From Clostridia bacterium (GTDB lineage Bacteria; Bacillota; Clostridia; Christensenellales; Aristaeellaceae), in assembly GCA_017517465.1 (NCBI GenBank), contig JAFWYZ010000018.1:13704-77703 (forward strand): a stretch of DNA of 64,000 nucleotides, in the 5' to 3' direction. A model generated the notes under the pieces. That model was not told where the DNA came from. It made no database searches and saw nothing but the letters and a program-made list of their open reading frames with translations. Of this stretch, positions 7,380 through 29,039 are shown one piece after another. The translations under genes were made by a program, and so were the position numbers. The number at the start of each line of letters is the position of its first letter. The first letter of the stretch is position 1.

Positions 7380-8591
7380 ATGAAGAAGTTCATTCCGCTG
7401 TTTTTATTGCTGCTATGTGTGTGCCTTCCCGCTTTTGCTGAGGAAGCAAGGGATATGACCGCCGATTGCGAGATCACCCTCTCCCCCGGCAAATACAAAA
7501 CCCTTGACCGCATCTGCGACCGGGACTGGCACACCATCTACCTCAGCAACAAAATGAAATCCCCTTCCGTCACCGTAAAAGCCCCCAAGGGGGAGGCCAT
7601 GCAGGGCGTGTACGTGTGCTTCGGGGACAAGCTGGCCCCCTGGCAGGTGCAGGAAAAGCAGGACGGAAAATGGGTGACCGTTTTTGAAAGCGAAGGGCTG
7701 TATGCCCACGAATATGCGCCGGTGAACGGTGCCAGGGAAATCCGCATCCTGCCAAAGAGCACCAAGCAAACCACCCTTTGCATCGGTGAGCTGTTTGTAT
7801 ACGGCGAAGGCGATCTGCCCTCCACCGTGCAGTTCTGGCAGCCTGCCCCGGAAAAGGCGGATATCCTCTTTCTGGCGGCACACCCCGATGATGAGGTGCT
7901 GTTTTTCGGCGGCGCCATCCCCTATTACGCCGGAGAAAAGCAGATGGACGTTGCCGTGGTGTACATGACCTGCAACCTGATGGAACGCAGAAGCGAGCTG
8001 CTCAACGGCCTGTGGACCTGCGGTGTGAAAACCTACCCAGTCGTTGCTGATTTCTGGGATAAATATGCCACCAAGGTGGACAAGATCTATGATGCCTGGG
8101 GCAAAACCGCTTCCCAGAAGTTCATCGTGGAGCAGCTGCGCCGGTTCAAGCCGGAAGTGGTGGTCACCCATGATACCAACGGCGAATACGGCCACGGTGC
8201 ACACAAAACCTGCGCCGATTTGATGCTCAAATGCATCCCCATGGCAGCCGGCACCGCCAAGTTCACCGATTCCCTGAACACCTGGGGTGCATGGGAAGTA
8301 AAGAAGCTGTACCTGCATCTGTATCCCGAAAATGCCATCGAAATGGACTGGGATCAGCCCCTTTCCGCTTTCGACGGCAAAACCGGCTACGAAATGGCCG
8401 TGGAGGGCTACAACTGGCACTTCTCTCAGCATGATCAGGGCCAGAAGAACAAGGAAACCGGAAAATTTGAATATTTCATCGTAGAGCCCAGGGACAGCGA
8501 TTACAGCTGCTACCGCTTCGGCCTTGCCCACACTACTGTGGGCCCCGATGTGGAAAAGAACGATTTCTTTGAGAACATCCCGATGGAATGA
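7380..8591 (+). CDS. Secreted PIG-L/LmbE-family deacetylase
   Basis: 403 aa. It has an N-terminal signal peptide (MKKFIPLFLLLLCVCLPAFA) and the motifs AHPDDEVLFFGG and HDTNGEYGHGAHK. A good RBS is present. Confidence 0.8.
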   Translation: MKKFIPLFLLLLCVCLPAFAEEARDMTADCEITLSPGKYKTLDRICDRDWHTIYLSNKMKSPSVTVKAPKGEAMQGVYVCFGDKLAPWQVQEKQDGKWVTVFESEGLYAHEYAPVNGAREIRILPKSTKQTTLCIGELFVYGEGDLPSTVQFWQPAPEKADILFLAAHPDDEVLFFGGAIPYYAGEKQMDVAVVYMTCNLMERRSELLNGLWTCGVKTYPVVADFWDKYATKVDKIYDAWGKTASQKFIVEQLRRFKPEVVVTHDTNGEYGHGAHKTCADLMLKCIPMAAGTAKFTDSLNTWGAWEVKKLYLHLYPENAIEMDWDQPLSAFDGKTGYEMAVEGYNWHFSQHDQGQKNKETGKFEYFIVEPRDSDYSCYRFGLAHTTVGPDVEKNDFFENIPME

Positions 8592-8738
8592 CGGAGCAGG
8601 GGGGCTCCTCGCCCCCCATACCCCCACCAGGGGCATCGCCCCTGGACCCATTTTGCGACACACAATCGTATTAACCAAAGTATTTTCCGCATGTTGCTTG
8701 GGGGAACGGGAAGAGAGCCCACGGGCGCTATGAAAACG

Positions 8739-8786
8739 AAAAAAAGAGCGGCTGAGAGAATGCGTTCTCTCACCGCTTCTTTTTTG
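8739..8786. terminator. Bidirectional intrinsic terminator inside mosaic copy A
   Basis: An A-run, then the stem agcggctgagaga/tctctcaccgct (one bulge), then a T-run. Confidence 0.55.
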
Positions 8787-8934
8787 TCGTTTTCCCCGGA
8801 TGCAAAGCATCCGGTCGGCGGCATTTTGCCGCCATGCCCGTGTGCGGGCGCCAGTGGCGCACCCAATTCGCAAAAACACATTCGTTCTCTGCAAAAGTAT
8901 GTGTGCATGTTACTTTGTTTCACCGGGACATTGT
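8739..8934 (-). ncRNA. Candidate structured small RNA (copy A): conserved 5' box, four consecutive hairpins, intrinsic terminator
   Basis: On the minus strand: ACAATGTCCCGGTG box, hairpins at 8848-8860, 8836-8849, 8817-8833 and 8796-8814, then the terminator. It is paralogous to 22359-22546 with compensatory stem changes. No expression evidence is available from the sequence alone. Confidence 0.25.
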
Positions 8935-9022
8935 CTGTATGATATGAATTGATGTTTCCGGAGAAAGGGTGCAGGGATGATATCCCTGCTGGGGTGGGGG
9001 CGAAGCCCCGCATCGTCTCTCC

Positions 9023-20873: not shown

Positions 20874-22139
20874 TCACGCATCTGCCGTTTTTTGATGCAT
20901 CAGAAAGGAAATCAGGCACACAACCAGCGTTACCACATGCCCCACCATATGGGCATAGCCTGCACCGAAAATGCCCTGTTCTTTGGTCCACAGCCAGGTG
21001 AGCCCCAAGGTCACCCCCGCCCCCATCAGCCCGGCATAAAAGCTTTTCCTTTGCAGGCCCAGCCCGGCCATGATGCCGGACAGCACCTGCTGCACCGGCA
21101 AAAAGGCTGCCAGCGGGCTCATCACCTGTAACAGATTTCCCACCTCCGGCAATCCATACAGCCTTTCCCCGATCCAGAACGCAAACCCATACAGCACCCC
21201 GGCGCAAATACAGCCCGCCAGTGCCGCCGTCAGCAAAAGCCGCTCCGTCATCCTGCGCTGCCGGGCACAGGAGGTGCATCCAGCCACCGCCGGTGTGCTT
21301 ACCGTGCCCAGTGCACCAGAAAAAATGCCGGGCAGAAAAATCATGGGCATCACCATGCCGTTGAGCATGCCCATCCGGCTGATGGCCTCTGCATGGCTCA
21401 GCCCAGAAGCGCACAGCCGCAGGGGGATCATCACGCTGCATATGGTGCGCAGCAGGGTGTGGCTCAGCCGGTTCAGGGTGATGGGCAGTGCCTGGCGGAA
21501 CAATTGCTTCTCCACCGGCGCTTTTTCCTTTTCCCCAGGCCTCAGCCACAAGGCGATCAGGCAAAGCCCCATGCCCTCCCCCAGCACCGTGGCAAATGCC
21601 GCCACCGCTGCCCGCCAGCCCACCGTCAGCCGGGAAACCAGCACACCTGCCCCCAGCACAACCGTCAGCCGCACCATCTGCTCTGTCATTTCGCAGAATG
21701 CCGGCGGCCAGGCATTACCCCGGCCCAGGCTGTACCCCCGATATACACCGGACAGGCCAATCAGCAGCACACAGGGGGCATACATGAACAGGGAGGGCAA
21801 TATCCGCTCATCCCCCATCAGCCTTGCAATCACCGGAGCAAATACCAGCAGCCCACCGCCCATCAAAAGCCCCAGCCGCAGTGCCATTTTTCGGGCTGCC
21901 AGCAGGACCCCTTCCTTGTTTTCCGTCTGTGCCGTCATCCGGCTCACGGCCGTGGGCAGCCCTGCCGCAGCCGGTGTCAGGGCCAGCATATGCGCCTGCC
22001 CTGCCAGCTCCATCACGCCCACCGCTTCCGGCCCCAGCAGCCGGGCTGTGATCAGCCGCAGCACAAACCCCAGCCCGCGGATGCCCACATTGCATGCTGC
22101 CATCACCGCCGTCTGTTTCTTCAGGCTCTGTTTCTTCAT
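20874..22139 (-). CDS. MOP-superfamily polysaccharide/lipid-II-type flippase (SpoVB/MurJ/Wzx-like)
   Basis: A GGAGGG RBS favours the ATG at 22139 (MKKQSLKKQTAVMAACNVGIRGLGFVLRLITARLLGPEAVG). It is a polytopic membrane protein. Confidence 0.75.
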   Translation of the reverse strand: MKKQSLKKQTAVMAACNVGIRGLGFVLRLITARLLGPEAVGVMELAGQAHMLALTPAAAGLPTAVSRMTAQTENKEGVLLAARKMALRLGLLMGGGLLVFAPVIARLMGDERILPSLFMYAPCVLLIGLSGVYRGYSLGRGNAWPPAFCEMTEQMVRLTVVLGAGVLVSRLTVGWRAAVAAFATVLGEGMGLCLIALWLRPGEKEKAPVEKQLFRQALPITLNRLSHTLLRTICSVMIPLRLCASGLSHAEAISRMGMLNGMVMPMIFLPGIFSGALGTVSTPAVAGCTSCARQRRMTERLLLTAALAGCICAGVLYGFAFWIGERLYGLPEVGNLLQVMSPLAAFLPVQQVLSGIMAGLGLQRKSFYAGLMGAGVTLGLTWLWTKEQGIFGAGYAHMVGHVVTLVVCLISFLMHQKTADA

Positions 22140-22358
22140 GCCCATCCCTCCCCGGCACAATCTATGCCGGTTTTATAGATAGCATGACAAAGGACCAGAG
22201 GCATCGCCCCTGAACCCTTTCTCCGGATATTGCAGTTTATATCACGCAAACAATTTCCCGGTGGAATTTGAAGAGACCAGGGGGGCTTCGCCCCTCCACC
22301 CCAGCAGGGACACTGTCCCTGCACCCAGTACCTAAAGCAACTTGGCTCTATCTTCCAA

Positions 22359-22546
22359 ACAATGTCCCGGTGCAACAAAGCACCACGCAGAAATCCATTC
22401 GCAGAGGAAGATTGTTTTTTTGAATCGGCTGCGGCACTGCCGCCCACGGGCTGGCGGTGTGAAACACCGCCGACCGGATGCTGTGCATCCGGGGAAAATG
22501 AGAAAAAACCGGCAGGAAAGTTCACTTTCCTGACCGGCTTTTTTCT
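22359..22546 (+). ncRNA. Candidate structured small RNA (copy B): conserved 5' box, hairpins, intrinsic terminator
   Basis: ACAATGTCCCGGTG box, hairpins at 22431-22443, 22442-22451, 22453-22471 and 22474-22492, then the terminator ccggcaggaaagt/actttcctgaccgg plus a T-run at 22503-22546. No expression evidence is available from the sequence. Confidence 0.25.
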
Positions 22547-22576
22547 ACATTTTCATTGCGCCCGTGGGCACTCTTT

Positions 22577-22928
22577 CCGTTTCCCTCAAGCAACATACGG
22601 AAAACAGATTGTGGATCAGTTTTGTTCTTCGAAGAACGGGTGCAGGGCCGATGGCCCTGCCGTGGGGGTACGGGGGGTGAGGAGCCCCCTGCTCCGTTTC
22701 CCCAAGCAACATGCGGAAGATGTTTGAAGAAGCAGTCTTCTGCATCGCAGAACGGGTGCAGGGCCGATGGCCCTGCCGTGGGGGGTACGGGGGGCGAGGA
22801 GCCCCCTGCTCCGTTTCCCCAGGCAACATGCGGAAAGAAGAATGGAAAAGCAGACTTCTGCGTCGCAGAACGGGTCCAGGGGCAATGCCCCCGGTGCGGG
22901 GGTGTGGGGGGCTGAGCAGGCCCCCGAA
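22577..22928 (+). repeat. Three tandem 117-bp units
   Basis: The motif ccgtttccc(c) recurs at 22577, 22694 and 22811. Each unit has CCGTTTCCCCAAGCAACATGCGGAA, a variable hairpin, GAACGGGTGCAGGGCCGATGGCCCTGCCGTGGGG and GGGGGGYGAGGAGCCCCC. Confidence 0.85.
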
Positions 22929-22951
22929 GGTGCCCCCTGCCCCGTTATTCC

Positions 22952-24922
22952 TTAAGCCTGACGGCCGATGGTAGCCTTGATGCGGCGCACACCGGCGGAA
23001 GAGGATTCTTCCTTCTGGATCTTGAAGGACACCAGATCGCCGGTATTGGACGCATGGGGGCCGCCGCAGATTTCCTTGGAATATTCACCCATGGTGTACA
23101 CCTTCACGCGTTCGCCGTACTTGCTTTCGAACAGGCCCATAGCGCCCTGTTCCTTGGCTTCGGCAACGGTCATTTCTTCCAGGGTGACGGGCACCTTGGC
23201 TTCGATGGCCACGTTCACCAGCCGTTCCACTTCCTTCACTTCTTCGGGGGTCATTTTCCGGCCGAAGGTAAAGTCAAAGCGGAGACGTTCGGCAGTGATA
23301 TTGGAGCCCTTCTGGTGCACTTCGTCACCCAGCACTTTCCGCAGGGCAGCCTGCAGAAGGTGGGTAGCGGTATGCAGGCAGGCCGTCTGTTCGCTGTTAT
23401 CGGCCAGACCGCCCTTGAACTTCTGTTCAGCGCCCTGATGACTCTTTTCCTGATGCTGCTTGAAGCGTTCGTCAAAGTCCGCCTTATCCACGGAGAGACC
23501 CTTTTCGGCAGCCAGTTCCATGGTCATTTCAATGGGGAAGCCGAAGGTGTCATACAGCTTGAACGCGCTGCGGCCATCCAGCACGGTGAGGGAAGCCATG
23601 CGGGCTTCCACAGCGGCAACCAGCGCATTTTCATCACCGGCATTGGCAGCTTCGATGATGGGCATCATGTCGGGAGAGGGGCGCAGCTTCTTGATCTTGG
23701 CCATTTCCTGGGCAAAGGCCACCTTGTTTTCGTTGGCCAGAATGCTTTCCAGCAGGGCCTTGGTATTCATGGTGTTGTTGTACACCTTTTCGAATTCCTT
23801 TTCACCCTGCTTCAGGGTACGGGCAAAGCGTTCTTCTTCCAGCTTCAGCTGTTCCAGCACGAAAGCGCTGTTGTCCTTCAGTTCGGGGTACACTTCGCAG
23901 TACTGGTCAATGATCACCTTAGCCAGTTCGCAGGTGAAACCGTCCTGCAGGCCCAGGCTCATGCCATAGCGCACGGCACGGCGGATAAGACGGCGCAGGA
24001 TGTAGCCCTGGTCCACATTGGAGGGGGATACACCGCGGGGGTCACCCAGGATGAAGGTGGAGGTACGCATATGGTCGGCAATGATGCGGAAAGCCTTGGT
24101 GTTTTCATCACCGGGGATGTACTTCTTGCCGCTCAGCTCTTCAATGCGGCCCAGGATGTGGGCAAAGATTTCGGTTTCATACACGCTCTTCACGCCGTTG
24201 AGCACGCAGATGGTGCGTTCCAGGCCCATGCCGGTGTCCACGTTCTGCTGAGCCAGGGGAATGAAGGTGCCATCCTGCTGCTTGTTGTACTGCATGAACA
24301 CGTCGTTCCAGATTTCCAGATAAGCGCCGCACTTGCAGGCAGGAGAGCAATTGGGGCCGCAGGGCTCCTTGGTGATGATGAACATTTCGGTATCGGGACC
24401 GCAGGGGCCGGTCACACCGGCAGGGCCCCACCAGTTGTGTTCCTTGGGCAGGTAGAACAGATGGTCTTCCTTCACACCGCAGGCGCGCCAGAGATTGGCC
24501 GCTTCTTCATCCCGGGGGCAGTCTTCATCGCCTTCGAAAACGGTGAAGGCCAGCTTGTCGGGATCAATGCCCAGCCATTCCTTGCCGGTGAGGAATTCCC
24601 AGCTCCAGGGGATCATTTCCTTCTTGAAATAATCGCCCAGGCTCCAGTTGCCCAGCATTTCGAAGAAGGTCAGGTGGGAAGGATCGCCCACGTCATCGAT
24701 GTCACCGGTGCGGATACACTTTTGCACGTCGGTAAGCCTCGTGCCGGCAGGATGCTTCTGGCCCAGCAGATAGGGAACCAGGGGATGCATACCGGCGGTG
24801 GTGAAAAGCACGGTGGGATCGTTTTCGGGGATCAGGGAAGCAGAGGGGATCAGCTGATGGCCCTTTTCCTGGAAGAAACGCAGGAACAGCGCACGCAGCT
24901 CATTGGCGGTCAAGGCTTTCAT
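22952..24922 (-). CDS. alaS: Alanine--tRNA ligase, short form (catalytic, tRNA-recognition and editing domains; no C-Ala domain)
   Basis: 656 aa, with FTTAGMHPLVPY, QKCIRTGDIDDVG and HLTFFEMLGNWSLGDYFK. The editing-site motifs HTATHLLQ and CGGPHASNTGD are present. The protein ends about 30 aa after the editing domain. Confidence 0.9.
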   Translation of the reverse strand: MKALTANELRALFLRFFQEKGHQLIPSASLIPENDPTVLFTTAGMHPLVPYLLGQKHPAGTRLTDVQKCIRTGDIDDVGDPSHLTFFEMLGNWSLGDYFKKEMIPWSWEFLTGKEWLGIDPDKLAFTVFEGDEDCPRDEEAANLWRACGVKEDHLFYLPKEHNWWGPAGVTGPCGPDTEMFIITKEPCGPNCSPACKCGAYLEIWNDVFMQYNKQQDGTFIPLAQQNVDTGMGLERTICVLNGVKSVYETEIFAHILGRIEELSGKKYIPGDENTKAFRIIADHMRTSTFILGDPRGVSPSNVDQGYILRRLIRRAVRYGMSLGLQDGFTCELAKVIIDQYCEVYPELKDNSAFVLEQLKLEEERFARTLKQGEKEFEKVYNNTMNTKALLESILANENKVAFAQEMAKIKKLRPSPDMMPIIEAANAGDENALVAAVEARMASLTVLDGRSAFKLYDTFGFPIEMTMELAAEKGLSVDKADFDERFKQHQEKSHQGAEQKFKGGLADNSEQTACLHTATHLLQAALRKVLGDEVHQKGSNITAERLRFDFTFGRKMTPEEVKEVERLVNVAIEAKVPVTLEEMTVAEAKEQGAMGLFESKYGERVKVYTMGEYSKEICGGPHASNTGDLVSFKIQKEESSSAGVRRIKATIGRQA

Positions 24923-25200
24923 TTCTTTTCAGCTCCTTTGAAAAAATAAAAGTGTGTCTTTTCGCTGAAGACGAACAGACACACTGTATTCGCGGTACCA
25001 CTTCAATTGGTGCATTGCGCACCCACCTCAATGCTGATAACGGCAGCAACCGAATCGCCTTGGGCAGCCTTTGAAGCTGTGTTCGGCGTTTGGCTCCGCA
25101 GCGGCAACATGCCTTGCTTTCCACCGGGCTTACACCATCCCCGGCTCGCTGGCGAAAACGAATGGACACGCTTTCTGCATCAAAGCCATATTCAATTACA
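24923..25200 (-). promoter_or_regulatory. T-box riboswitch leader of alaS
   Basis: On the minus strand, the T-box sequence AATTGAAGTGGTACCGCG lies at 24991-25008. The terminator gtgtgtct/agacacac plus a U-run lies at 24941-24986. Stem I has the distal motif AGCGAGCCGGGGATGGTGTAAGCCCGG. Ala codons (GCA, GCC, GCU) sit in the 3' strand of stem I. Confidence 0.85.
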
Positions 25201-25204
25201 AATG

Positions 25205-25233
25205 AGTATACCCTCATTTTCCTTTCCTGTCAA
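25205..25233 (-). promoter_or_regulatory. Sigma-A promoter of the alaS T-box leader
   Basis: On the minus strand: TTGACA, a 17-nt spacer, then TATACT. Confidence 0.6.
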
Positions 25234-25469
25234 GGGAAAACTCTTGTTTTTCACCCGGCACGGTACTACAATTCTTTCTTATAAAATTTGGGAAAAGTTG
25301 CAAGAAAACCCTGCCTTATTCCGTTACATTGTTGGAAAGAAAATGGAGACCAACACACATGAAAAACATGCTCTGAATCTGGTTTTTTCACCCTTTCCCA
25401 CACCCAGCATATCTTGCAGCCAAAGAATGACAGCACATTAACATTGCAATCATTAGATAAGGATAACAT

Positions 25470-26471
25470 ATGAAAACAAATAAAGACATTGACTATTACA
25501 ATCTACCCATAGGAACAAAGCATGGTTGCTATACGATTGTTGCAGGGTTTGATGCATATCACGAAGAAAACGGAAAAAGGGAAATTGCTGAACTTGAAAA
25601 TGAAAAACAAAAATTCATCGCTGGTATAAAGAATAATCGATATGCTATTACTGATATCGAGAGTTTCGACCAACGTATAGAAAATGAAAAAAGTAAAAAG
25701 TATTATAAGGTGCAATGTAGATGTGGAAAGACATCTTTTATGTCTATATCTGAGTTGTTCTGTAAGCAATGGAGAGATTGTGGTGAAGATTGTGGAATTT
25801 ATCGAGCATCATACCCCAGAGTAAAAGCAGATGACTACGATATAGAATTTGTTAATAATACCCATGAATCTCTAGAAATAATCAGATGTATCGATGACCA
25901 CGTTGAAGGTTCTAGCATTGTACAAGTTAGACGCAGAAAAGGCGCTGGGATAGTTATGTTACATAAAAGATTCCATTGCAAATGCTACTTGTGCGGAAAA
26001 GAATACGAATTCTTATCTAAAGATTTCAAAATAAATAACGATGCATATGGCTCACGTGCAGCATGGGGATATTATTGTGAAGCTTGCTGTGATTGTCATA
26101 GCATCTCATCATTTCAATGGAGAACAATAAAAATTCTACATGATCATCGAATTCCTTATCGTGTTGAGGTTTCATATCCCGATCTGTTGAGTGATGCCGG
26201 CAATCCGCTTAGATATGATTTCTTAATCTACAACGATGATGGAAGTACGAAATGTTTGATAGAATGCCAAGGAAAACAGCATTCCCAAATTGGTGGGGGC
26301 TACGGCGGCTATTCCGATTTAAGAATGAGACAAGAAAGAGATTCTCGAAAACGAAAGTACGCTGAAAAACACAATCTTGTTCTTATTGAAATTCCTCATA
26401 CTATCAAGACATATGATAAAGAAACAGCCTTCTTAGTTAAAGCTGGAGTGATTCCAAAGCAAGAAAAATAG
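25470..26471 (+). CDS. Cys-rich protein with a C-terminal Vsr/DUF559-like PD-(D/E)xK endonuclease fold (AT-rich, probably horizontally acquired)
   Basis: 333 aa. There is an AAGGA RBS. It is the only long ORF in a stretch of about 33-40% GC. Cys pairs are QCRCGKTSF, HCKCYLCGKEYEF and CEACCDCH. The C-terminus reads RYDFLIY..STKCLIECQGKQH...RDSRKRKYAEKHNLVLIEIPH. The coding call is more confident than the functional call. Confidence 0.7.
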   Translation: MKTNKDIDYYNLPIGTKHGCYTIVAGFDAYHEENGKREIAELENEKQKFIAGIKNNRYAITDIESFDQRIENEKSKKYYKVQCRCGKTSFMSISELFCKQWRDCGEDCGIYRASYPRVKADDYDIEFVNNTHESLEIIRCIDDHVEGSSIVQVRRRKGAGIVMLHKRFHCKCYLCGKEYEFLSKDFKINNDAYGSRAAWGYYCEACCDCHSISSFQWRTIKILHDHRIPYRVEVSYPDLLSDAGNPLRYDFLIYNDDGSTKCLIECQGKQHSQIGGGYGGYSDLRMRQERDSRKRKYAEKHNLVLIEIPHTIKTYDKETAFLVKAGVIPKQEK

Positions 26472-26537
26472 TCCGCACAAACCAAACAGAAAGACGAGCA
26501 TTTTCAGAGGTTTTGCATCTGGGGAACATAGCAAAAA

Positions 26538-26580
26538 GGCGCGGGTGGAAACTTGTTTCCGCTCACGCCTTTATGTTTTC
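26538..26580 (+). terminator. Putative intrinsic terminator after the AT-rich gene
   Basis: ggcgcgggtggaaac / gtttccgctcacgcc imperfect stem followed by tttatgtttt. Confidence 0.45.
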
Positions 26581-26707
26581 TTGTTCCCATGACTATACTT
26601 ATTTCTCTCCTCATCTTTCAAACGGAAACAATTGTGTTCGTCAAATTGTCTATCCGTTCTAAGTCCAGGGACGAAGTCTATTGCAAGGTCAGGGGCAATG
26701 TGCCTGT

Positions 26708-28066
26708 TTATTTCACCTTTTTCCACCGGCCGGAAATGAAATACACCATGCCGATCACAAAGGGCATCCAGCCTGCCAGCGCATCGCCGTACCAGAAGCC
26801 CTGACAGCCCATGCCAAGGCCAAAGCCCAGCAGCGCCGCAATGCCCACACGGCTGCACATGCCGTCAATGATGGCAATAGCAAAGTTCAGCCGGGTGTTG
26901 CCGCTGCCGTTGATGAGGGAAAAGGCCACGGCCCGGGTAGCCGCACCGAAGAAATTGATGATGGTGGGGGCAATGATCACTGCCGATACCGCCAGCACCG
27001 ATGCATCGGTGGTAAACATGGCGAAGATGGTTTTGGAGAAGAACAGCACCGCCACCGTGCAGATGCCGCTGACGATCATCCCGCACACCAGCACCGTACG
27101 CATGATTTTCGGCACTCGTTCGTATTTCTGGGCCCCCAGGTTCTGCCCCACCATGCTGGCACCGGCGGTGGTAAAGGAATTGGACACGATACCGATCATC
27201 ATGCCCACCTTATTGTAAATGCCGCTGAGGGCAGAATAGGTAACGCCGGAGAGGTTGATCCAGCTGGTGAGGACGATCTTGGAAATATTGATGGATGCAG
27301 ACTGGATGGCCATGGGCACCCCCAGGGATACCAGGGGCTTGAGCGCTTCCCGGTCAATCCGGAAGCTCTGGAGCTTGAAATCAAAGCCAAAGCTTTCCCG
27401 GCTGCGGTACAGGTATACCAGCGCCACAATGAAGCTGAAGGCCTGGCTGATGACGGTGGCCAGCGCGGCGCCGAACACCTCCATCTCCATGCCGTAAACA
27501 AACACCAGGTCCAGAATAATATTCATCACAGCGGCAATGGCCACAAACACAAAGGGCCGCTTGCTGTCCCCCATGCCGCGGAGGATGGCGCTGATGATGT
27601 TATAGCCGTAAATAAACACCAAGCCCACAATACAGGTGACCGTATAATCCATGGTGTACTGATAGGACTCCGCAGGTGTATTGAGCATGTCCAGCATCCA
27701 CAAGCGCAGGAAATAGCAGCCCACACTCATGATCAACGCAATGCCCAGCAGGAAGGTGAACATGGTGCCGATGGTTTTCTTCACCTTTTCCATCCGTCCG
27801 GCGCCCACGTCCCTGGCGATCAGCACTTGTCCGGCGGAGGAAAAGCCCATGGCCAGGAAGGTAAGCAGATGCAGCACATCACCGCCAATGGAAACGGCGC
27901 TCATGCCGGCGCCGCCCATCTTCTGCCCCACCACCACCATGTCCACAATGTTGTAGATGGCCTGCAGGGCATTGGAAATAAACAGCGGGAAGGCAAAGCT
28001 GAGCAGCAGCTTCGCCACACTGCCTTCTGTCAGGTCCCGCACCATGGATTTCTTTTGCTGTTGCAT
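26708..28066 (-). CDS. MATE family efflux transporter
   Basis: Track ORF 26708..28075. RBS spacing favours the ATG at 28066. It contains LLSFAFPLFISNALQAIYNIVDMVVVGQ and has 12 TM-like segments. Confidence 0.9.
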   Translation of the reverse strand: MQQQKKSMVRDLTEGSVAKLLLSFAFPLFISNALQAIYNIVDMVVVGQKMGGAGMSAVSIGGDVLHLLTFLAMGFSSAGQVLIARDVGAGRMEKVKKTIGTMFTFLLGIALIMSVGCYFLRLWMLDMLNTPAESYQYTMDYTVTCIVGLVFIYGYNIISAILRGMGDSKRPFVFVAIAAVMNIILDLVFVYGMEMEVFGAALATVISQAFSFIVALVYLYRSRESFGFDFKLQSFRIDREALKPLVSLGVPMAIQSASINISKIVLTSWINLSGVTYSALSGIYNKVGMMIGIVSNSFTTAGASMVGQNLGAQKYERVPKIMRTVLVCGMIVSGICTVAVLFFSKTIFAMFTTDASVLAVSAVIIAPTIINFFGAATRAVAFSLINGSGNTRLNFAIAIIDGMCSRVGIAALLGFGLGMGCQGFWYGDALAGWMPFVIGMVYFISGRWKKVK

Positions 28067-28177
28067 GTAAAACATCCTCTTTCTGAAATAACACAGTTTT
28101 CATTGTAACAAAGAAACAGTCCCGGTGCAAGAAAATTCCTGCCCATTTTTGCGCAAAAAAGAGCCTGTTTTCTACAG

Positions 28178-28202
28178 CAAAAGGGAGGGGCAAGCCCCTC
28201 CC
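28178..28202 (-). terminator. Intrinsic terminator downstream of kduD
   Basis: On the minus strand: gggagggg-cttg-cccctccc followed by tttt. Confidence 0.55.
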
Positions 28203-28235
28203 GCGCAATTTTTCTTTCTGAATCCTTGATTTTCT

Positions 28236-29039
28236 TCAGGGCTGGCGGCCGATATAAGCGAGGATACCGCCGTCCACATACAGCACCTGGCCGTTGACGA
28301 AGTCGCTGGCATCGGAAGCCAGGAACAGCGCCGGGCCCATCAGGTCTTCCGGGGTGCCCCAGCGTTCGGCAGGGGTCTTGGCACAGATAAACTGGTCAAA
28401 GGGATGACGGCTGCCATCGGGCTGACGTTCCCGCAGGGGGGCCGTCTGGGGCGTTTCGATATAGCCCGGGCCCAGGCCGTTGCACTGGATGTTGTACTGG
28501 CCGTATTCGGAGCAGATGTTGCGGGTGAGCATCTTCAGGCCACCCTTGGCAGCAGCATAAGCAGACACGGTTTCCCGGCCCAGCTCGCTCATCATGGAGC
28601 AGATGTTGATGATCTTGCCATGGCCCTTTTCCATCATGCCGGGAATGACGGCCTTGGCAACGATATAGGGGGCCACCAGGTCCACGTCGATGACCTTGCG
28701 GAAATCCCGGCTTTCCATTTCGATCATGGGGATGCGGCGGATAATGCCGGCATTGTTCACCAGAATATCCACAACGCCCACTTCCGCGGCGATCTTTTTC
28801 ACCATGTCCTGCACAGCATCTTCATCCGTCACGTCGCACACATAGCCGTATGCCTTGATGCCTTCGGCTTCATAGGCGCTCAGGCCCTTGTCCACCAGTT
28901 CCTGGTTGATGTCGTTGAACACCACCGTAGCGCCGGCCACGGCCAGGCCCTTGGCGATGGCAAAACCGATGCCGTAGCTGCCGCCGGTGACCAGGGCTAC
29001 CTTGCCCTGCAGGGAAAACTTGCTCATATCAAATGCCAT
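28236..29039 (-). CDS. kduD: SDR oxidoreductase, 2-dehydro-3-deoxy-D-gluconate 5-dehydrogenase / gluconate 5-dehydrogenase type
   Basis: 267 aa, with TGGSYGIGFAIA and YAAAKGGLKMLT. It lies immediately downstream of kduI. Confidence 0.8.
   Translation of the reverse strand: MAFDMSKFSLQGKVALVTGGSYGIGFAIAKGLAVAGATVVFNDINQELVDKGLSAYEAEGIKAYGYVCDVTDEDAVQDMVKKIAAEVGVVDILVNNAGIIRRIPMIEMESRDFRKVIDVDLVAPYIVAKAVIPGMMEKGHGKIINICSMMSELGRETVSAYAAAKGGLKMLTRNICSEYGQYNIQCNGLGPGYIETPQTAPLRERQPDGSRHPFDQFICAKTPAERWGTPEDLMGPALFLASDASDFVNGQVLYVDGGILAYIGRQP

Follow-up and report, generated by a model that had tools for sequence, protein, structure and literature searches.

Homing endonucleases of the EDxHD family, whose prototype is I-Bth0305I, are defined by five positions (E170, D196, N208, H213, and D222) that correspond to E25, D51, H64, H69, and D97 of the mismatch-repair endonuclease Vsr (PMC3239194), and an invariant Glu occupies the Vsr F62 position in this family (Dassa et al., PMC2677866). 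The VSR, DUF559, and DUF2726 families have been placed together with 3r3p/I-Bth0305I in a single group, group 58 (PMC3424549). Moreover, intron homing endonuclease genes (HEGs) of phages AR9, PBS1, MarsHill, and S6 encode three to five CapR/DUF4379/DUF723-like modules of ~60 amino acids (aa) followed by a C-terminal EDxHD/Vsr-like domain, and in 2025 they were described as 'a large unrecognized outgroup' whose unannotated relatives number in the thousands, free-standing ones being common (PMC12350094). The gene treated here lies in a stretch of 64,000 nucleotides (nt) from a rumen or gut Clostridia bacterium (contig JAFWYZ010000018.1), referred to as the window, between the promoter of alaS and a MATE transporter gene. 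The 333-aa product joins a Cys-rich N-terminal half to a C-terminal nuclease domain, an architecture that matches the outgroup mentioned above and, therefore, represents a kind already known (Dassa 2009; Taylor 2011; Merk and Eddy 2025; Pfam DUF2726; PHROGs 559 and 9084), of which this gene is a new, uncharacterized member. It is probably a free-standing homing-endonuclease-type gene of the zinc-module and Vsr/DUF2726-like (EDxHD-related) superfamily that was acquired horizontally. The gene and the parts of its product are the following:

25470 to 26471, plus strand: nuclease open reading frame (ORF), 333 aa, a zinc-module and Vsr/DUF2726-like nuclease of probable homing-endonuclease type
25470 to 26105, plus strand: N-terminal region, aa 1–212, with a long helix (27–50) and then two beta-hairpin modules (from invariant columns and predicted models)
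25716 to 25793, plus strand: Cys group C83/C85/C104/C108 (invariant columns)
25983 to 26096, plus strand: Cys group C172/C175/C207/C209 (invariant columns)
26106 to 26468, plus strand: C-terminal nuclease domain, aa 213–333 (conservation, Foldseek, hhalign)
Within the nuclease domain, plus strand: candidate active-site residues Q216 and E233 (conservation)
26217 to 26219, plus strand: candidate active-site residue D250 (conservation)
26262 to 26282, plus strand: candidate active-site segment E265-C-Q267-G-K-Q-H271 (conservation)
26340 to 26342 and 26349 to 26351, plus strand: candidate active-site residues D291 and K294 (conservation)

The HEGs of AR9, PBS1, MarsHill, and S6 have the same plan as the window protein, Cys-rich N-terminal modules and a C-terminal nuclease of ~110 aa (PMC12350094), and the nuclease domains of AR9 and MarsHill are homologous to that of the window protein, with D250, E265, G268, H271, D291, and K294 in common. 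However, the AR9-type genes are borne by introns, whereas the window gene is free-standing in a bacterial chromosome; their modules are CapR/DUF4379/DUF723-like, whereas the N-terminal modules of the window protein match no Pfam model; and their motif is E-x-D-G-x-Q-H, which reads E-x-Q-G-x-Q-H in the window protein. The latter variant is found in the closest annotated homologues of the nuclease domain, the proteins of the Herelleviridae phages KEN04 and BSP9, although these are located in a split terL gene and carry N-terminal modules of a different, repeated C..C type. I-Bth0305I (PDB 3R3P; PMC3239194) also has a C-terminal Vsr-related catalytic domain preceded by DNA-binding modules, its D196, H213, and D222 correspond to D250, H271, and D291 of the window protein, and the Glu at the Vsr F62 position (PMC2677866) corresponds to E265. 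However, I-Bth0305I has no detectable sequence link to the window protein, uses NUMOD and helix-turn-helix modules without zinc instead of presumed zinc modules, has E170 as its first Glu where the window protein has Gln216, and is intron-encoded in a phage recA gene. The DUF2726/VSR/DUF559 group (PMC3424549) shows the same spacing, D ... E-x-(D/Q)-G-x-x-H ... D-x-x-K, although DUF2726 has no assigned function and the window protein lies below detection by its model. Finally, the Seg and Mob genes of T4-type phages are likewise reported to be stand-alone nuclease genes, between or beside conserved genes, that spread with their flanks by break repair (PMC2790892, PMC2330249), as proposed here; however, their catalytic families, GIY-YIG and HNH, are unrelated, and their setting is the co-infection of a cell by phages instead of a bacterial chromosome.

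Protein family, conserved residues, and predicted fold

A search of 5.8 billion proteins found 113 homologues, of which only one is identical (in a metagenome-assembled genome (MAG) of a Clostridia bacterium) and the others are at most 62% identical; most of them belong to the Bacillus cereus group, to other Bacillaceae, to Clostridium, or to gut MAGs, and their annotation reads 'hypothetical' or 'DUF2726 domain-containing'. An exhaustive hidden Markov model search retrieved 23,141 cluster representatives at E ≤ 1e-3, a number that fits the thousands of unannotated relatives of PMC12350094; only ~60 of them, in clusters at 50% identity, have the full-length architecture, and the rest match the nuclease domain together with repeated zinc modules. 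The window protein itself has no Pfam match at E ≤ 10 over its full length and none in NCBIfam, and a search of PDB sequences with it gave nothing significant, a cytochrome c1 match (E 0.025) being set aside as it covers a CxxCH-like stretch only. In PHROGs, it matches phrog_559, 'HNH endonuclease' (7e-22, aa 54–318), and phrog_9084, 'homing endonuclease' (4e-17, aa 206–325). When 56 homologues were scanned singly, 19 reached DUF2726 (PF10881; best 1.2e-6), and 10, all of them longer proteins, carried an extra N-terminal DUF4379 treble-clef finger. The subfamily of the window protein is distinct and found mostly in cellular genomes, and its N-terminal modules resemble neither a model nor a solved structure. 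This subfamily of ~60 clusters, within a superfamily of more than 23,000, is entirely uncharacterized.

Across the 56 homologues, eight Cys (C83, C85, C104, C108, C172, C175, C207, and C209) and the residues D250, E265, C266, G268, H271, D291, and K294 are invariant, while Q267, Q270, E233, Q216, and H210 are conserved in at least 90% of the sequences. The eight invariant Cys would fit two Cys4 sites, in each of which a beta-hairpin knuckle is presumably joined by a downstream pair. The initial annotation had proposed Cys-rich modules with a CEACCDCH cluster and a Vsr/DUF559-like nuclease C-terminus in an architecture of no named family. The Cys modules stand, although C203 and C206 of that cluster are not conserved; the candidate catalytic residues hold throughout the homologues, Q267 nearly so; and the nuclease assignment agrees with the predicted structure given below. 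In contrast, the view of an unnamed architecture must be abandoned in the light of DUF2726 in 19 of the 56 relatives, both PHROGs families, and the outgroup of PMC12350094.

The AlphaFold2 model of the protein has a predicted local distance difference test (pLDDT) score of 90.5, and its best PDB matches in Foldseek are all PD-(D/E)xK nucleases, namely the DrdV nuclease domain (top), Vsr (1vsr; probability 0.94, template modelling (TM) score 0.50 on the target), and TnsA; the E-values, at 0.04–0.1, are weak, and 3r3p is not among the top 50 matches. The C-terminal domain has the Vsr/DUF2726-type PD-(D/E)xK nuclease fold. Among predicted viral structures, 113 matches were found at E ≤ 1e-3, under names such as 'Group I intron-associated VSR homing endonuclease', 'Homing endonuclease', 'DUF2726', and 'Treble clef zinc finger', and structural alignments of 250–326 columns (TM 0.3–0.4) extend to the viral 'treble clef zinc finger' proteins. 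Modelled by itself, the N-terminal half reaches a pLDDT of 87.7 and has no significant fold match in the PDB (best E 0.58); it shows only a faint local resemblance to small SH3/OB-like modules and the zinc ribbon of NrdR. This half is presumed to be a zinc-stabilized DNA-recognition part, and the subfamily might yield a new zinc-module scaffold for DNA recognition.

The C-terminal domain is homologous to intron-encoded homing endonucleases of phages. The family profile aligns in hhalign with the AR9 HEG at 95.3% probability (E 2.3e-8) and with the MarsHill HEG at 95.6% (E 1.2e-8), and D250, E265, G268, H271, D291, and K294 are invariant in all ten aligned sequences, six phage relatives among them. 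At the position of the N-terminal Glu (Vsr E25/I-Bth0305I E170), at least 90% of the subfamily has Gln (Gln216) and the phage relatives have Glu, E233 and E265 being the other conserved acidic residues of the domain. In the hhalign comparison with Vsr, whose significance is considered further on, the register is as expected (Q216 = E25, E233 = Q42, D250 = D51, E265 = F62, Q267 = H64), and the alignment, which fixes D250 as D51, reaches only G268 = Vsr G65; H271 and D291, which lie outside it, can be assigned to Vsr H69 and D97 by motif spacing and published alignments. The nuclease domains of Enterococcus phage vB_Efs8_KEN04 (WZP34863.1; 34% identity, E 6e-19) and Bacillus phage BSP9 (ATN94528.1; 30% identity, E 2e-13) are encoded between pieces of a split gene for the terminase large subunit, terL, where Rfam detected no intron RNA around either homologue. 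Among phage proteins, the one that aligns with the window protein over the greatest length is annotated as 'hypothetical protein', measures 464 aa, and comes from Lachnospiraceae phage NatCom_43249 (L114, 2805–4199), with 57% coverage and 34% identity and the second Cys module included; its gene lies in a replication-gene region beside a MazF-like gene and an HNH gene, and not in a split gene.

Foreign DNA and allelic states at the alaS locus

The DNA of the nuclease gene is foreign in composition. Its GC is 36% and its GC at third codon positions (GC3) 0.27, against 55–57% and 0.73–0.78 in the surroundings; in 300-nt windows, GC is 0.33–0.40 over 25250–26600 and 0.52–0.65 in the flanks, and 25001–27000 is the sole stretch with GC below 0.48 across all 64 kb (1-kb steps). 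The codons AGA, ATA, and TTA occur at 36, 30, and 15 per 1000 in the nuclease ORF and at 0, 0, and 0 in the neighbouring alaS, MATE, SDR, and KduI genes. The low-GC island is, however, wider than the foreign DNA, as can be seen from the parts of the locus and its three allelic states:

24964 to 25192, minus strand: T-box leader of alaS, a neighbour outside the insert (Rfam RF00230, full-length model match)
25205 to 25233, minus strand: alaS promoter TTGACA-17-TATACT, 11 of 12 consensus matches
25241 to 25415, plus strand: remnant of a native 254-aa gene, from alignment with the lineage-B contigs L123 and L124, which carry the intact gene
25416 to 25469, plus strand: foreign 5' leader; lineage-B homology fades near 25415, GC 0.35, boundary ± ~50 nt
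26472 to 26513, plus strand: foreign 3' tail, between the stop codon and the start of lineage-B homology
26514 to 26707, no strand: retained native intergenic DNA with homology downstream of the 254-aa gene, holding a hairpin at 26522–26588
26708 to 28075, minus strand: MATE transporter gene; the polymorphic unit ends on the right at its stop codon
Occupied allele (window and contigs L001–L006, 99.5–99.9% identical to the window): upstream of the alaS promoter, a stub of the 254-aa gene, the nuclease gene, the hairpin region, and MATE
Empty allele in the window's own lineage (L094, 98.3–98.7%): MATE 5 nt from the alaS promoter
Empty allele in a sister lineage (L121, ~85–91% in the flanks): MATE 4 nt from the alaS promoter
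Native-gene allele (L123 and L124, lineage B, alaS 92–97%): intact gene for a 254-aa secreted repeat protein, then unrelated genes

The identical protein is found on seven contigs, with the order alaS-gene-MATE in all six of those whose gene order was compared. In L121, homology to the window breaks off at 25240, so that the polymorphic unit begins 7 nt past the alaS promoter, and restarts at 26708. L094, identified as an empty allele by DNA alignment, shares one junction with it, which reads GGGAAAA-ACGGC-TTATTTCACC in L094 and GGGAAAA-ACGG-TTATTTGATC in L121, and the empty allele in both contains CCTGTCAAGGGAAAAACGGCTTATTTCACCTTTTTCC. The nuclease gene is, thus, polymorphic (present or absent) within a species-level lineage, in line with the demand of the initial annotation that an acquired gene should not sit at this locus in all relatives. 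Because some strains of one species have the gene and others do not, it is a clear, if rather unremarkable, example of a selfish nuclease gene in a bacterial chromosome. Neither the nuclease gene nor MATE beside alaS was found in any of 80 related species representatives (alaS 56–86% identical), and the alaS-based genome scan yielded no empty site because synteny is lost there.

The remnant of the native gene contains a promoter-like TTGTTT-17-TACAAT (25244–25272), a ribosome-binding site (RBS), an ATG at 25359, and then a frameshifted signal-peptide stub, and blastn homology to L123 extends to 25408; the nuclease gene has its own RBS, AAGGA at 25460–25464, in the foreign leader. On the other side, local alignments of the retained intergenic DNA to L124 5893–5947 and 6155–6303 score 31 and 60, against 18 ± 2 for shuffled sequences. 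Since 25241–25415 and 26514–26707 match native DNA, the foreign DNA is limited to ~25416–26513, that is, ~1.1 kb of 36% GC comprising the ORF and ~50 nt per side. It has replaced the body of the native 254-aa gene, with the promoter stub and the terminator region retained, and the retained promoter of that gene is probably the source of nuclease gene transcription. The AT-rich single-gene island with switched codon usage, put forward in the initial annotation together with the 333-aa ORF that contains every peptide motif quoted there, is upheld by these data. The low GC spans 25241–26707, but the foreign DNA measures ~1.1 kb and not 1.37 kb, and the terminator-like hairpin taken as its end is real but native, not part of the insert. 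Together, the ancestral-type 254-aa gene, the nuclease replacement, and the empty site bound the foreign DNA to within ~50 nt and are candidate substrates for a cleavage assay, a testable natural experiment that would be unsurprising to a specialist.

Some details of the native DNA can be added. In lineage B, the 254-aa gene lies at 125–889 of L123 and 6409–7173 of L124, and its product has a hydrophobic, signal-peptide-like N-terminus and three ~80-aa repeats (…YGYCYQYDQPSS.TG.NLGR…GYIRK), with a faint Phage_T4_Gp30_7 match as its single Pfam mark. Relative to L124 6155–6303, the ~140 nt at 26514–26654, hairpin included, are inverted, and the next 55 nt are colinear.

Homing and the alternatives

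As a horizontally acquired, self-contained cassette and a member of a known superfamily, which it likely is, the nuclease gene could function as follows; phage members of this superfamily reside in introns of essential genes. The N-terminal half, held by two presumed Cys4 zinc sites, would read a long DNA site, and the C-terminal domain would cut DNA with Mg2+ through D250 (= Vsr D51), E265, Q267 (= Vsr H64), H271 (= Vsr H69 position), and D291 (= Vsr D97), with K294 nearby. The break in a gene-less allele would be repaired by recombination from a gene-bearing allele, and the gene would spread together with its flanks through this repair. At the present locus, ~1.1 kb of 36%-GC DNA (~25416–26513) displaced the body of the native 254-aa gene beside the alaS promoter, and the nuclease gene is probably transcribed from the retained promoter up to the retained terminator region.

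The contexts of relatives fit a selfish or accessory nuclease gene. In a Ruminococcaceae MAG, a relative of 44% identity is likewise a single AT-rich island, surrounded by housekeeping genes (GC 32% versus 51–52%), and other relatives are found at a prophage end beside recombinases, near an integrase, beside an LXG/SUKH toxin-immunity cluster, on a transposase-rich megaplasmid, and on Bacillus plasmids, with no recurring partner gene in the seven contexts sampled. Of eight copies on plasmids, three are broken, which is what a selfish nuclease gene in its decay phase should show. In H33, H37, and H38, on plasmids of B. cereus G9842 and B. pseudomycoides, full-length homologues are split into two pieces annotated as two ORFs and, therefore, some copies of the family are decaying. 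The relative P0078 (L112, 7001–8278), of 425 aa and with an extra DUF4379 finger, lies at the end of a prophage-like block with a holin, an amidase, and two serine recombinases, and a Mg-chelatase/ComM-like fragment after it suggests that the element integrated in comM.

Several points weigh against a homing-type gene. The ORF, its foreign composition, the nuclease fold and homology, the conserved residues, the limits of the insert, and the polymorphism are shown, whereas the binding of zinc, the cutting of DNA, a target site, use of the promoter, and spread by homing are predicted. The hhalign comparison with the single sequence of E. coli Vsr is not significant (P 0.13), and the profile matches no PDB sequence at E ≤ 10, 3R3P included; no phage record covers at least 80% of the window protein, and its full-length relatives are chromosomal, plasmid-borne, or prophage-borne. 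Moreover, a native gene was replaced, which is not a clean insertion, the empty alleles may have arisen by deletion of the whole unit rather than being ancestral, and homing in bacteria would require DNA transfer between cells. When empty and occupied alleles are compared, their mismatches show an even distribution and do not cluster at the junction, whose nearest 400 nt contain only 1, so that no conversion tract is visible; the P0067 loci are all ~100% identical and, hence, uninformative on mosaicism. One contig, L002 (ERZ1767641 NODE_6556), equivalent to 20881–28849 of the window, is a mosaic that would speak for homing and be a striking recombinant. Its flippase gene and spacer are of lineage-B type, 96–100% identical to L123 up to ~23030, its alaS-gene-MATE core is A-type, 98–100% identical up to 28562 (100% over 24066–27371), and its SDR half is divergent, dropping to 60–70% identity exactly at the YAAAKGG motif. 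However, its coverage is 3.8x and both junctions lie in conserved sequence (the alaS 3' end and the SDR YAAAKGG motif), so that it may be an assembly chimera, and lineage B has neither MATE-SDR nor the nuclease gene at its alaS locus. The idea that L002 is a co-conversion tract centred on the gene was downgraded in view of the gene-based look-up by which it was obtained, the conserved junctions, the 3.8x coverage, and the missing MATE-SDR of lineage B, and its status as a real inter-lineage recombinant is suggestive only. Accepting it would open one half of a bolder proposal, in which there is either active chromosomal homing between diverged rumen or gut Clostridia lineages, L002 being a true A-type alaS-gene-MATE tract in a lineage-B background, or a domesticated homing-type nuclease that protects the cell from invading phages by cutting a conserved phage gene; this proposal is rather doubtful, but, if true, either form of it would mean that the biology of homing endonucleases reaches beyond the introns of phages and organelles into bacterial chromosomes.

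Among the roles other than homing, that of a domesticated or defensive nuclease, which would cut incoming phage or plasmid DNA and be kept for protecting the host or a resident element, possibly by targeting a conserved phage gene like those of the intron-borne cousins, is conceivable, if unlikely. Such a role would suit the accessory regions in which relatives lie (prophage end, LXG/SUKH cluster, megaplasmid, near an integrase) and a gene that is intact and 100% identical in seven contigs, and an intron endonuclease is reported to act in interference competition between co-infecting phages (PMC11620839). However, the window protein matches none of the defence models of PADLOC-DB v2 (0 families at E ≤ 10), it has no sensor, ATPase, or partner gene, and intron homing is the nearest characterized context of its domain. 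The three roles first suggested for the gene (homing endonuclease, orphan restriction-like enzyme, and anti-phage factor) are, thus, narrowed in favour of the homing type by homology but not down to one, with defence keeping the small share just given to it. Establishing the target and whether the role is homing or defence would give an annotation to proteins that are listed in their thousands as 'hypothetical' or DUF2726.

It is improbable that the gene is a stranded passenger, a phage or plasmid nuclease gene that landed by illegitimate recombination, has no target in the world of its host, and is still undegraded. Replacement of the native gene instead of a clean insertion, the missing conversion-tract signal, a composition still far from that of the host, and decaying copies on Bacillus plasmids would all be accounted for in this way, but the ORF is intact with every conserved residue present, it is identical across samples, a promoter and an RBS are retained upstream, and the subfamily has been kept full-length in ~60 clusters at 50% identity. 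An orphan restriction-type enzyme, either modification-dependent and type IV-like or solitary and type II-like, has a very low probability. The fold is common to restriction enzymes, with the DrdV nuclease domain as the top PDB match, Vsr-like domains occur in the PvuRts1I/AbaSI family, and several viral relatives are automatically named 'Restriction enzyme'; however, there is no methyltransferase nearby and no recognized modified-base reader such as SRA (the full-length Pfam scan was empty), and the homologues in lytic phages are found within essential genes that are split, which is no setting for restriction. A Vsr-type mismatch-repair endonuclease is disfavoured to the point of being scarcely credible although Vsr is among the best structural matches, since no dcm partner gene is nearby, the intercalating F67 and W68 of Vsr have no counterpart (QGKQH here versus HGCFWH in Vsr), the gene is foreign in composition and absent from close relatives, and its 333-aa product has an extra N-terminal region of ~210 aa compared with the stand-alone Vsr protein of ~150 aa. 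A free-standing gene of homing-endonuclease type is, therefore, preferred over these alternatives.

Neighbouring signals and intergenic DNA

The nuclease gene is intergenic and does not lie within a group I or group II intron. In an Rfam search of 24800–26750 at E ≤ 1, the T-box of alaS is the sole credible match, two others being at chance level (E 0.68 and 0.94), and no intron RNA was found. This T-box scores 85.5 bits (E 1.3e-18), below the Rfam gathering score of 93, and is therefore missed by a default Rfam scan; on the same minus strand, the alaS promoter has TTGACA at 25233 and TATACT ending at 25205, so that the T-box promoter recognized in the initial annotation is corroborated. Likewise, its statement that no methyltransferase, integrase, transposase, tRNA, or flanking direct repeat is visible agrees with the searches, as the 64-kb window contains no tRNA, there are no direct or inverted repeats above chance around the nuclease gene, and none of the three enzymes is among the Pfam marks of the neighbour genes on the near-identical contigs. 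The possibility that the left edge of the island carries a second copy of the MATE 3' end was rejected, as 147 of 1000 shuffles score equally well. The hairpin at 26522–26588 has a folding free energy of −36.6 kcal/mol (z −6.6) and resembles a bidirectional terminator.

An exact look-up of the alaS and MATE proteins of the window returned no record. The alaS gene (22952–24922, minus strand) encodes a short form of 656 aa with tRNA-synt_2c and tRNA_SAD as its only Pfam domains, which is typical of the clade because all 80 related loci match over ~652–656 residues. Between the flippase-like gene and the alaS 3' end, the spacer at 22208–22925 contains a tandem array of 117 nt x 3 at 22576–22925, whereas lineage-B loci have a much shorter flippase-alaS spacer with an 80-aa ORF instead. 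The spacer is 75–80% identical, in inverted orientation, to 8591–9020 of the window, and a stretch related to it is also present upstream of a MATE orthologue in contig L095; it looks like a dispersed intergenic repeat element.

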